Positions 3,001-6,000 of a stretch of DNA of 9,804 bases are shown piece by piece. The position numbers were made by a program. Each line of letters opens with the position of its first letter. The stretch's first letter is position 1. The DNA comes from a virus (lineage: Duplodnaviria; Heunggongvirae; Uroviricota; Caudoviricetes): the IMG/VR virus record IMGVR_UViG_2671180662_000011; one strand, written 5' to 3'.

Positions 3001-6000
3001 TCCCGAAGGCTTCGGAAAACGCATTCATTGCCTTCTGGCGTTGATCCTGCTTACGGCATTTATTCCATTTTTTCAGTAACAACAGCGATAGCCACCGCCC
3101 GGCGCAGAACATAATGTAAAAATAACCAAGAAGCGCCAGACCTGTGTTGAGGGCCGTATCGATCGTTATAGTGGTGTCTATGCTCACTTCACACCTCTCT
3201 GTTTGTTGATAAGTTCAATATCCTGCTGGCAACTGGCGCAAGTTCGGCATCCGCGAACAGCCTGGCGTCGCCGCTCATCTATCGGATCGCCACACTCGCA
3301 ACAATGAGTAGCAGATGGGGCATTACTTTCGGATTTGTATTTTTGCAGGGAGAGATTGCGCTGCAATTCTTCGATTTCAGCGGCATTGTCGATGATATCT
3401 GCCATTTTCCTTTCCTTCAGGCATGAAAAAAGGAGCCGAAGCTCCTTTGGTATCAGAATTCAAATTGTCTTGCTCTTAGTTGCGCTAGCATACTTCTGGC
3501 CCTATGCACCATATAGTTGGCGGGATCAAGTTTTGCTGCTTCGCGGAGCAATGTGTCGCGAGTCCGGTTGGTTATATGACGAGTCTCGTAGGCCAGATCA
3601 AACAGTTTCCCGTAGTAATCAGAATTCAGTTCTCTCATGACGGGGTATAGCTGCTTACTGAGTTGTTGTGCTTTTTCCATCCAGAGTTGAACGTAGCAGA
3701 GCAGGATGATGTCTTCTGCTGTGAATTGCTGCTCAGTTTGTACTGGCTGAATGTTGCGAAGTTTCTTTTCGCACTCGATGAAGTATCGGCGTATCTGGCG
3801 GCCTTTTTCGTTACGTTCAACCATCGCAAGCTCTTTGGCTGTGTCGAGGGTGAGGTGGTAATCCTTGCGGCGGCGGCCTGGAGTTTTCGCCAAATTTGGC
3901 GAAAATAGAATGTAGTCTAAATTTTCTACGAATCCATACTCGTTTAGCTTGGCCCGTATCCAGTTAGAAAAATCTTTACCTACCTCTAAAAATCCATGCA
4001 AATCACGCGCGTTCACCAGAAGCGTAGGTTCATTTGAGATTGTACCTTCAAACACAGGGATGAGTTGAGTGGTCATGATGACCTCCTTTGGCTTTTTTCG
4101 AGAAATGCCACCACAAAATGTGGTGCCGGGAGGCTCGAAACGGCCCAAAAGATACCGCGGACTTATTCCCCTTGCGGGTGTTGTATTCGTCGCCCTCCCG
4201 ACATTGATCGGGGATGTGACCGCACACTGTGCTATCACTGAATAACAGGCATAAAAAATCCAACACTGACGGGGTTGGTTTAATCCGCTTTTGGGAGGTT
4301 TTCGAGGCCTCGGCGCGGAGTATAGTCAGTATTGGACGCAGTCGTCAACCATCGCCGTTTCTTTGGCTGTGTCGAGGGTGAGGTGGTAATCCTTGCGGTT
4401 GTGACCGCCTCTACCAGATGTTTGCTTTCCCAAATTGGAAAGCAAAATATAGTCTTGATTTTCAATGAATTCGTATTCTGAAATGCGATTTGTAATCCAT
4501 GCCGCAAACACCTTTTTCACGCCTAAAAAAGCATGCAGATCGCGGGCATTGCAGAGTAGGGCTGTTTCGTTGTCGATAGTGCCGTTGAATACGGGGATGA
4601 GTTGATTAGCCATAATTATGACTCCTGACGTTTTAGTATTGACTGCCACCTTAGTGGGGTGGCGGGCTTCAACTACCGCGTCAGACGGCGGAGCGTATTT
4701 CCCGAAAGGGTATTGTATTAGGCTCTCTCGACCCGCCATTGATATGGCGATACCTGTAAACAGGCATAAAAAAGCCGCAAAGCTATCGGGTGCGGTTGAC
4801 CGCTGACGTTGTAGTGCGGTCAGTATGCGATAGCTCTGGCAGATTTGTCAAATCGTGCAGTAACATCCTTTTCTTCCTTGCCATTTCTCAATGATGACAA
4901 AGGGTGGATTCGGATTGGTATTGGGACAAAAGTGAGACACACAAAGCTTTGCATCGGCTTACAAAGCTTTGCATGTTTTTCAATGTTGGGACGTGTGAGC
5001 GCAGAAATGACGGGCTATCTAATTGATTTTAAACGATACGTAACCAACTTTAAAATCTTTGCACGCCAGTTCGCAGGTTTTACAGCCAGTACAGCGGCTG
5101 GAATCGATAAAAAATCCATATTGTGTGGTCATGGGCTACTCCTTAAACCTTTTCGATCTGGACAAGATTGCTGTGCGACGGGTTTCCCTTTGCCAGCGGT
5201 GAAGGGCGGTGAGAGGTCAGAATATTGATACTGCCGCCGTGATCGACCCGGTCACCAAACATATCCGCTTTAAGCCACGCACCTTGCCCGATGGCGGTAA
5301 CGCCAGGCAGAATACGCGGAGTCACTTTTGCGGCAATCAGCATTTCTCCATTATTGTTAAATACCCGCACGGTATCGCCATGACGGATACCGCGTGCCTG
5401 AGCATCAATGGGGTTGATCCACACCTCTTGTGGGCAGGCCTGCTGTAACACATCAATATTGCCGTAGCTGGAGTGGGTACGCGCTTTGGTTTGGCGACTT
5501 CACTCAGCATCCAGTAGATGGGTTTGCGTTCAAATTTTGCTGAGGTTGCGGGTTGGGCGAGGATCACATAGCCCATATTCCCTGCAGATTCATGAGAGAT
5601 AAGGTCTTCTTGCTCTGTTGGCATCAGGTCAGGCAACAGGATATCGCAATACTTAGCCGAGGCCGTCATGAAGTGGTCAATGCCAACAATCATCTCGCAC
5701 TTGCTGTCATCCTGAAGCACCTCATGGGTGTGATTGATGTCGCCATGTTGATTGATCAATGTGTTACTGGCGTAGCACCATAAAAACTTGATGGGGACAT
5801 CCAGTTTTTCTTTTCCACGAACACCATCACGGGTCGCGGTCATTTTCGTACCATGGTCGATGGCATCTGTCCATGTAAAAACGGAAATCTGCGTTTTAAC
5901 AGGATTCTCGAGCATCGGGAACCATTCTACCCCCAGATCCCAGCTACCTTCGCGTACACCTGAGTTGCCGCCGTTTATGCCGACGTTACCGGTAAGAACG

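Follow-up and report, generated by a model that had tools for sequence, protein, structure and literature searches.

Phased repeats beside the ynfG junction of a Stx-type prophage fall within one arm of a P22-type attachment site and probably belong to an excisionase-binding array

What purpose is served by two identical 14-mers set two helical turns apart, close to the point where a prophage meets the host gene ynfG? The window (the whole stretch of DNA analysed here, 9,804 nucleotides long) carries ACAAAGCTTTGCAT on the + strand at 4941–4954 and again, as an exact copy, at 4961–4974, with 20 bp from start to start. The core of both copies, CAAAGCTTTG, is a perfect 10-bp palindrome. No further copy with up to two mismatches was found in the whole window, and shuffled sequence contained a mean of 0.15 matches, reaching two in 3 of 200 shuffles. 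The preliminary description, which had recognized the pair, took it for an orphan operator made of palindromic dimeric sites, whose regulator gene would have disappeared in a deletion that created the junction at 5048. Its observations on the pair were sound: the end of the second 14-mer is 74 bp from the junction core (~75 bp had been given) and the start of the first is 90 bp (~90 bp) from the −35 box (TTGACA, 4851–4846) of a promoter-like site that a promoter scan placed on the − strand at 4822–4851, upstream of an AntA-domain ORF (4326–4739, − strand) and outside the attachment site described below. Small DNA-binding proteins that bind cooperatively do typically use helically phased repeats, and the proposed search of related prophages, once run, found the motif present in homologous prophages, whereas its absence would have spoken against it.

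The interpretation of the junction, by contrast, has to be replaced. It is the precise site-specific integration junction attR, with the core CTTTAAA at 5048–5054, and nothing has been deleted. The attB in ynfG of strain K-12 reads ...ccaagatCTTTAAAatctttgcacgcc..., the attL beside int in strain 05-3629, whose genome (NZ_CP027373.1) is the closest to the window, reads ...ccaagatCTTTAAAgttgttgc..., and the attR of the window reads ...aaccaaCTTTAAAatctttgcacgcc. Only CTTTAAA is common to the three and their flanks are those that integration predicts, so that the junction at 5048 results from integration and not from the deletion proposed earlier; a core shared by attB and both prophage junctions is, moreover, a defining trait of an attachment site. 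In the attR core region (5044–5059) this three-way comparison places a phage half-site CAAC at 5045–5048, overlapping the first C of the core, and a host half-site ATCTT at 5055–5059. The attP core rebuilt from attR, attL and attB is CAACTTTAAAGTTG, and an intact attP was seen in the IMG/VR contig L135. Window positions 5048–5488 are 100% identical to K-12 and contain the 5′ fragment of ynfG cut by the integration (5049–5132, − strand, start codon 5132–5130, as annotated in NZ_CP027373.1, whose sequence is identical here); identity with the closest genome is 100% over 2344–5488. The window thus holds attR, at the right-hand end of a prophage of lambdoid, 933W-like type that entered ynfG in its 5′ portion by site-specific recombination and uses a P22-type Int/Xis/att module. 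This module is carried by a 933W-like Stx-type phage, and ynfG is a known integration site of the Stx1 phages POCJ-13 and 75/02 (PMC5447701; PMC10562709).

The DNA on the phage side of this core has a well-known counterpart. Over 117 bp, window positions 4916–5033 align at 82–85% identity with the P arm of attP in phage P22, and likewise with that of many P22-like phages. That P arm was reportedly characterised by Smith-Mungo, Chan and Landy in 1994, and the footprint of P22 Xis is said to have been described by Mattis, Gumport and Gardner in 2008. By this homology to a characterised attachment site, the segment containing the 14-mers is the P arm of a P22-type att site, that is, a recombination site and not a transcriptional operator. 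The motif TGRGACR has five matches in the window, three of which, all on the + strand, cluster at 4922–4993: TGGGACA at 4922–4928 (P1), with TTGGGACA as its counterpart in the P arm of P22; TGAGACA at 4933–4939 (P2), which aligns with TGGGACA in P22; and TGGGACG, with its conserved flank TGTGAGCGCAG, at 4987–5004 (P3), identical in P22. We read these GGGAC-type motifs as putative Int arm-type sites. A tandem P1/P2-like pair (GTGGGACAAATTTGGGACA; L004, 7196–7215) also occurs in the P′ arm, within the 3′ end of int at attL, which brings the total over both arms to five (three in the P arm and two in the P′ arm). At the level of motifs, a repeated arm element is therefore found in both arms with fixed spacing and distinct from the core sites, as expected of the att site of a heterobivalent tyrosine integrase. 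Of 80 unique related arms, 78 have P1 and P2 11 bp apart and 77 have P2 and P3 exactly 54 bp apart, whatever the sequence of the spacer. The two 14-mers sit 74–107 bp from the core, inside the 47-bp spacer between P1/P2 and P3. Between P3 and the core, an IHF-like site on the − strand (5016–5028, AATCAATTAGATA, one mismatch to WATCAANNNNTTR) was assigned by analogy with the H sites of lambda and P22; the window contains 13 matches to the IHF consensus against 10.2 expected, and this one is not significant on its own.

The related arms come from a scan anchored on P3. It replaced a pattern scan for CTTTGCAT-N12-CTTTGCAT that was biased by its own motif, with unrelated sequences making up ~40% of its matches. 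A search of IMG/VR for Int-based loci retrieved 80 prophage contigs, nearly all ending just past the int stop codon; since the P arm lies at the opposite end of the prophage, these contigs were uninformative about it.

The P22 homology also bears on the possibility that the pair is an operator, perhaps of the ant promoter, at which a dimeric repressor or activator acted until its gene was lost by deletion at 5048. The perfect palindrome in each copy, the two-turn spacing and the promoter-like site of the AntA-domain ORF 90 bp away would suit such an operator. However, apart from the fact that the junction is a precise attR without deletion, the homologous P22 attP has gtrA and not ant beside it, the block travels with the int/xis/att module and not with ant, and the palindrome is imperfect or lost in homologues (CAAATCTTTG and CAAGGCTTTG in P22, TAAGGCCTCA and CAAGGCTTTA in SfV). 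A dimeric transcription-factor operator was largely rejected, as neither a conserved dyad nor a link to the promoter was found, and we regard this explanation as very improbable.

What the P22 and SfV arms keep, instead of the palindromes, is a head-to-tail periodicity of 10 bp. Four 10-bp units with the consensus nnnTTnGCAT follow each other on the + strand at 4945–4984, and the 14-mers carry the first and the third. Unit 1 (AGCTTTGCAT, 4945–4954) is contained in the first 14-mer, whose homologue in P22 is ACAAATCTTTGCAT, and unit 3 (again AGCTTTGCAT, 4965–4974) in the second, for which relatives have GCAAGGCTTTGCAT. Unit 2 (CGGCTTACAA, 4955–4964) is degenerate, most relatives having CGGtTTGCAA, and unit 4 (GTTTTTCAAT, 4975–4984) conforms to the cross-family unit 4 consensus CTTTTnGCAT; the register was set by combining the periodicity at lag 10 with the consensus of the units in 18 family representatives. 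Across 19 spacer families, self-identity is 0.516 at lag 10, 0.505 at lag 20 and 0.40 at lag 30, against ~0.25 at other lags, and these values are unchanged in the 15 families unlike the window type. Strong 10-bp periodicity and a fixed spacer length run through 19 sequence families of P22-type att sites; this periodicity was our test for an array bound by a recombination directionality factor (RDF), and the families show it. The arm shares with P22 attP, in the same order, its two tandem GGGAC sites, the TTTGCA units at 10-bp phasing and a further GGGAC site whose flank GTGTGAGCGCAG is unchanged. It differs from it in the core and target (CTTTAAA in ynfG, versus the thrW tRNA gene in P22), in the carrier, which is a 933W-like Stx-type phage and not a P22-like podovirus, and in two G-to-A changes at 4961 and 4965. 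Through these two changes units 1 and 3 become identical together with their 5′ flanks, which gives the window its pair of matching 14-mers, while the unit between them is degraded; the change at 4961, in unit 2, is peculiar to the ynfG-phage type.

Repeats of this form could also be mistaken for activator sites. P22 and many relatives carry TTGC-N6-TTGC-N6-TTGC at this place, the epsilon34 record marks two ‘putative CII-binding sites’ at the homologous position, and the prophage of the closest genome encodes a CII-family protein, all of which would fit sites for CII (C1 in P22), TTGC-N6-TTGC, marking a CII-dependent promoter in the arm. Such boxes, however, arise automatically from TTTGCA units spaced by 10 bp. 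The window itself reads TTGC-N6-TTAC-N6-TTGC, with the middle tetramer changed so that neither box is intact, and the box occurs in only 2 of the 19 spacer families. A suitably placed −10 element is missing, and a + strand promoter scan of 4941–5000 returned nothing; a promoter in that orientation would moreover be antisense to int, which would make no sense for an activator of lysogeny. On the TTAC middle, the 2 of 19 families and the missing −10, we rejected a CII/C1-activated promoter for the window, and its role in explaining the repeats is hardly credible.

The periodic units are better explained by the recombination module to which the arm belongs. In the closest genome (NZ_CP027373.1), the prophage encodes a P22-type Int and an Xis at its far end (attL). 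Such cognate proteins in the same element are a further mark of an attachment site, and in that genome they have not been lost. Its Int is 71% identical to P22 Int, and its Xis, which matches Pfam HTH_17 and the PHROG ‘excisionase’ with an E value of 1e-43, has an N-terminal HTH region nearly the same as that of P22 Xis; searching by sequence, we found no relatives of this Xis protein in the PDB. The window itself contains neither int nor xis, and its own genome would encode both, judging from the closest relatives. According to PMC7498355, RDFs bind tandem repeats arranged head-to-tail one DNA turn apart; citing Mattis 2008, it describes P22 Xis as a protein that bends att DNA, has a Kd of ~1 µM for single ‘operators’ and at high concentration spreads across Int sites.

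We consider it probable that the 14-mers and the other units form a cooperative binding array for Xis, the excisionase, in the attR P arm of a P22-type prophage. The xis product, an HTH_17 homologue of P22 Xis encoded beside int at the far prophage end, would bind the units, with several monomers occupying them cooperatively, one per helical turn. These monomers would bend the P arm sharply and help Int to bridge arm and core sites, so that recombination between attL and attR could excise the prophage. We infer that Xis, and not another protein, would occupy the units, with these consequences for excision. The variation among families is in part consistent with this: phages with ..PTAtNWIRTGRLQATRK in their Xis have TTTGCA-type units in common, whereas L277 and L195 differ both in the Xis recognition region and in the unit sequences. 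This pairing of Xis type with unit sequence rests on only ~4 recognition-helix types, and SfV and 2G7b, with near-identical Xis HTH regions, have diverged in unit 1.

The likeness to lambda is one of architecture. According to PMC7498355, which cites Abbani et al. 2007 (PNAS), lambda attR has the Xis sites X1-X1.5-X2; as there, the units of the window follow each other head-to-tail at intervals of one helical turn, two presumably strong outer sites being separated by 20 bp and flanking a weaker one. In both cases the sites are in the P arm, across the core from int, and have Int arm-type sites on either side, those of the window being putative. By analogy with that same account, cooperative binding and bending for excision would be expected here too. 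The units have no sequence similarity to those of lambda, the lambda and P22-type Xis proteins are not detectably related in sequence, and there are four units instead of three. The order of elements also differs, being P1 P2 [units] P3 H core here and P1 H1 P2 X1 X2/F H2 core in lambda. This precedent raises the question of whether the units are bound by host Fis or IHF, or by extra arm-binding domains of Int, and not by Xis. In lambda attP, a Fis site overlaps X2 and IHF sites are present in both arms, and the T-rich phased tracts of the window could act as intrinsically bent DNA. Nevertheless, the units are unlike the GGGAC arm motif expected for Int, the sole IHF-like match in the arm is the one at 5016–5028, between P3 and the core, and the units vary among families although Fis and IHF are the same in their hosts, and appear to track the type of Xis. 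Occupation by Fis, IHF or Int is, in our opinion, improbable.

The Xis array in its pure form leaves one feature unpredicted, namely an inverted repeat with compensatory changes in this clade. The DNA of units 1–3 can also be read as a potential hairpin (4937–4976, − strand) with a 17-bp stem and a 6-nt loop, in the sense of an int transcript, where it gives a terminator-like match with the tail CUCACUUUUG, whose four U begin 5 nt past the stem. Its predicted folding energy is −22.7 kcal/mol (z = −5.1), and the SfV segment folds at −24 from a differing sequence. On the + strand the stem is weaker (−16.7 kcal/mol, 10-nt loop), with UUUUU directly after it. In a set of 37 related sequences, the proportion of paired cells is 92.5% on the − strand and 85.7% on the + strand, and compensatory changes affect four pairs, with 23 cells altered on both sides (e.g., C-G to U-A in 11 sequences). 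None of 500 shuffles reached the covariation score, a control that overstates the significance because the sequences are related.

These data could mean that the repeats are mainly an RNA hairpin, a terminator or RNase III target like lambda tI/sib. In the free phage, an int-sense (− strand) transcript that leaves int, crosses the att core and enters the P arm would fold at 4976–4937, and the fold would govern both the expression of int and the read-through that reaches the ant/ea genes downstream; in the lysogen, it would insulate these genes from transcription of ynfEF-ynfG′. The stable fold, the compensatory pairs and the preference for the − strand fit this scheme, as does the presence of ant, traR, DUF4752 and ea22 downstream on the same strand, and the epsilon34 and phage L records annotate a ‘terminator’ here, in epsilon34 ‘for transcription from int’. 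Yet the compensatory conservation is confined to the clade of P22, SfV and the ynfG phages. Many families with the same P1/P2-spacer-P3 architecture have no hairpin, folding at only 0 to −7 kcal/mol, and all those without the fold retain the 10-bp periodicity and the 54-bp spacing. The strand preference is inconsistent, as three families fold better on the + strand; likewise, the asymmetry of G-U pairs has an overall − strand bias that is reversed in three families and is not decisive. The − strand U-run is short, set off from the stem, coincides with the P1–P2 spacer and is not conserved, and the hairpin corresponds to no Rfam family, its sole match being a spurious sub-threshold one to mir-19. 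As in lambda tI/sib, the hairpin would lie just past att on the int-sense strand and be split from int in the prophage; it differs in being made of the putative Xis units and in being clade-specific. In lambda, sib and the protein-binding portion of the arm are separate. An explanation of the repeats mainly by RNA seems unlikely to us.

Both functions might nonetheless share the same 40 bp, which would be read in DNA as the four-unit Xis array and in the RNA of the free phage as a hairpin acting as a terminator or RNase III-dependent, sib-like retroregulator of int, with ant/ea in the lysogen insulated from host ynfEFG′ read-through. This is a tentative idea that we hold doubtful; if true, it would tie Xis binding and the fate of the int mRNA to one sequence in the P22/SfV/ynfG-phage clade. 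Beside the annotation of the att site, the hairpin overlay is a modest question.

With an Xis array as the preferred reading, the element is of an ordinary, largely known kind, and the annotation of the window changes: 4922–5059 becomes the P arm of attR in a P22-type integration module and 5048 an integration junction. Shiga-toxin phages (POCJ-13, 75/02 and Stx1a prophages of STEC) use this element to enter ynfG, and the arm would mark the place where their excision is controlled. The strict 54-bp P2–P3 distance enclosing four family-variable 10-bp units may also help to predict RDF sites in uncharacterised prophages. Window positions 4840–5047 are 100% identical to the Stx1 phages POCJ-13 and 75/02 (KJ603229 and KF766125; PMC5447701), whose records end at the att arm and carry no annotated feature in the matched stretch, leaving the arm structure unmarked. 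Among 5426 complete E. coli genomes, 82 contain the 85-bp block with the 14-mer pair, in one copy each and with at least 99% identity in 81 of the 82. The att arm block is, in this survey, a single-copy sequence linked to the ynfG prophage, and it remains 100% identical in ynfG prophages with differing neighbour genes.

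On its + strand, the window carries two copies of the 14-mer ACAAAGCTTTGCAT (4941-4954 and 4961-4974); a search of the whole window for further copies at ≤2 mismatches detected none, and shuffled sequences averaged 0.15 matches. The distance from the end of the second copy to the 5048 junction is 74 bp, and that from the start of the first copy to the -35 hexamer TTGACA (4851-4846) of a promoter-like sequence on the - strand is 90 bp; these values, like the identity of the copies, agree with the preliminary description. The junction itself had been attributed to a deletion. We compared attB in K-12 ynfG (ccgggccaagatCTTTAAAatctttgcacgcc), attL from the far prophage end in the closest genome (ccgggccaagatCTTTAAAgttgttgctc) and attR in the window (acgtaaccaaCTTTAAAatctttgcacgcc), and found that CTTTAAA (5048-5054) was the sole sequence common to K-12 ynfG, attL and the window, with 0 host bases lost. 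The attP core as reconstructed, CAACTTTAAAGTTG, is a dyad, and an intact copy is present in the IMG/VR contig L135. On sequence comparison, the 5048 junction is thus an att site with complete host sequence, and a deletion is excluded. The att-site comparison also contradicts the proposal that the 14-mers are an orphan operator, and so does the linkage of the block to the int/xis/att module and not to ant. The 85-bp arm is present as a single copy per genome in 82 E. coli genomes, with at least 99% identity in 81 copies, despite differing neighbour genes.

The window covers the right end of a prophage integrated into ynfG, beyond which come ynfF and a partial ynfE. Among complete genomes, that of E. 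coli 05-3629 (NZ_CP027373.1) is the closest; it shows 100% identity to window 2344-5488 and contains a 933W-like Stx1a phage of ~60 kb. The right end of this prophage encodes, on the - strand, DUF551, ea22, DUF4752, TraR/DksA and two AntA-domain proteins, and then the ynfG 5' fragment, whereas at the left end the ynfG 3' part is directly followed by int (387 aa) and the overlapping xis. Window 4840-5047 is 100% identical in the records of the Stx1 phages POCJ-13 and 75/02, for which, as for the Stx1a prophage in RM10410, integration in ynfG has been documented (PMC5447701; PMC10562709). The prophage end of 05-3629, identical in other respects, lacks window 688-2343 (ea22/DUF551 region), a variable cassette of the arm-proximal gene cluster. 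In the free phage, attP separates int from the ant/traR/DUF4752/ea22/DUF551 genes downstream of it, an arrangement comparable with that of the lambda b-region genes.

Window 4916-5033 exhibited 82–85% identity to the gtrA-int segment of P22, ST64T, ST104, phage L, epsilon34, BTP1 and others, with SfV, SfII, SfI, 2G7b and Kati among the more distant matches. The P22-type similarity of the arm ends near the core, as expected where phages have different targets. The ynfG phage encodes an Int with 71% identity to that of P22 and a Xis with hits to Pfam HTH_17 and to the excisionase family of PHROG; this Xis has the N-terminal HTH region in common with P22 Xis, near residue-for-residue. We identify the element as the P arm of a P22-type attR.

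Three TGRGACR motifs are found on the + strand of the P arm, at 4922 (P1), 4933 (P2) and 4987 (P3), and two more in tandem in the P' arm, within the int 3' end; because the motifs are conserved and recur in the two arms, we read all five as putative Int arm-type sites. P22 presumably also has five. A P3-anchored scan yielded 62 unique spacers, which fall into 19 sequence families. Irrespective of spacer sequence, P1 and P2 were 11 bp apart in 78 of the 80 unique contexts, and P2 and P3 54 bp apart in 77 of them. The spacer showed a striking 10-bp periodicity, with identities of 0.516, 0.505 and 0.40 at lags of 10, 20 and 30, respectively, versus ~0.25 elsewhere, and the same values were obtained for the 15 families dissimilar to the window type. 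It contains four in-register units with the consensus nnnTTnGCAT: unit 1 (4945-4954, AGCTTTGCAT), unit 2 (4955-4964, CGGCTTACAA), unit 3 (4965-4974, again AGCTTTGCAT) and unit 4 (4975-4984, GTTTTTCAAT). In this register, the two 14-mers are units 1 and 3 plus their 5' flanks. The majority of relatives have ACAAAGCTTTGCAT ... GCAAGGCTTTGCAT, and G-to-A changes at 4961 and 4965 account for the identity of the two copies in the ynfG phage. The palindrome is not conserved, the equivalents being CAAATCTTTG and CAAGGCTTTG in P22 and TAAGGCCTCA and CAAGGCTTTA in SfV. The comparison yielded, as a by-product, a four-unit, fixed-geometry rule for the P22-type att family. Relics of a P22-type P arm, comprising P1, P2 and units 1-3 and cut before P3, were observed in phages JEP4 (L187, 2195-2252), where a lambda-type attP and int lie downstream, and vB_EcoP-611R6 (L188, 2195-2248), where an int annotated as CPS-53-type lies just downstream; they are the visible scar of integration-module replacement.

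Head-to-tail repeats at one-helical-turn spacing, in the arm away from int and flanked by Int arm sites, are a hallmark of recombination directionality factors (RDFs), with lambda X1-X1.5-X2 as the model for such arrays. According to a published account (PMC7498355), P22 Xis bends att DNA, is weak on single operators and spreads at high concentration. Based on this repeat layout and the reported behaviour of P22 Xis, we read 4945-4984 as a Xis-binding array of attR, the repeats being most probably Xis sites. During excision, Xis bound to this array would recruit Int and bend the arm. The element is a further case of a well-known kind. Thin support comes from the Xis recognition region: TTTGCA-type units occur in all phages with ..PTAtNWIRTGRLQATRK, and different unit sequences in two phages in which this region differs (L277 and L195). 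In SfV and 2G7b, unit 1 has diverged despite an identical Xis helix, which counts against over-confidence in the Xis reading. From the earlier interpretation we retain the cooperative protein binding expected at phased sites, and abandon all the rest.

The repeats might instead be CII boxes, since the P22 sequence reads TTGC-N6-TTGC-N6-TTGC and CII sites are annotated at the homologous place in the epsilon34 record. However, the middle tetramer in the window is TTAC, a CII box occurs in only 2 of the 19 spacer families and the putative boxes lack a -10 element, so that we reject this explanation for the window. As for binding of host factors to the repeats, the sole IHF-like match of the arm, not significant alone, lies elsewhere, between P3 and the core (5016-5028).

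In addition to the putative Xis sites, the comparison revealed, as a second by-product, a hairpin overlay on the arm. An RNA hairpin on the - strand (int-sense, 4976-4937), with a 17-bp stem, a dG of -22.7 kcal/mol and a z of -5.1, may possibly have a secondary role: across 37 related sequences, 92.5% of cells were paired, with both-sided changes at four pairs, and other authors annotated a terminator at the homologous place. Nevertheless, the hairpin is confined to one clade, the favoured strand varies and the - strand U-tract is weak. The - strand encodes both the host operon ynfEF-ynfG' and the ant/traR/DUF4752/ea22/DUF551 genes of the prophage (window 4922-5132 plus ynfF and ynfE rightward); given this shared orientation, host transcription could cross attR into the phage genes unless stopped, for example by this hairpin.

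The adjacent AntA-domain ORFs (3453-4238 and 4326-4739) have in common a ~54-bp stretch of ~93% identity (3817-3870 and 4345-4398, from cross-alignment to 05-3629). The annotation of the closest genome lists the second, of 137 aa, as a truncated pseudogene. The 5' part of this second ORF contains a - strand match to the Rfam family sRNA-Xcc1 (RF02221; 4653-4737) of full model length, scoring 53 bits, exactly the gathering score (E 1.4e-8), and the Pfam domain of the ORF begins only at residue 64; the ORF start may be misplaced, and an sRNA or leader element may lie upstream of ant. On the host side, ynfF is disrupted (ORFs 5143-5451 and 5337-7184), with 385 bp deleted at 5488/5489 compared with both K-12 and 05-3629; as identity to 05-3629 shifts there from 100% (left) to 98.5% (right), the site also marks a breakpoint of recombination or mosaicism. 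The ynfE homology ends at 8272 and is followed by foreign DNA from 8273 to 9804, in which a 345-aa ORF (8334-9371, + strand) had no Pfam matches. A pig strain (NZ_CP180600) encodes a 460-aa site-specific integrase at the same ynfE truncation point, which points to the insertion of a second integrative element into ynfE.
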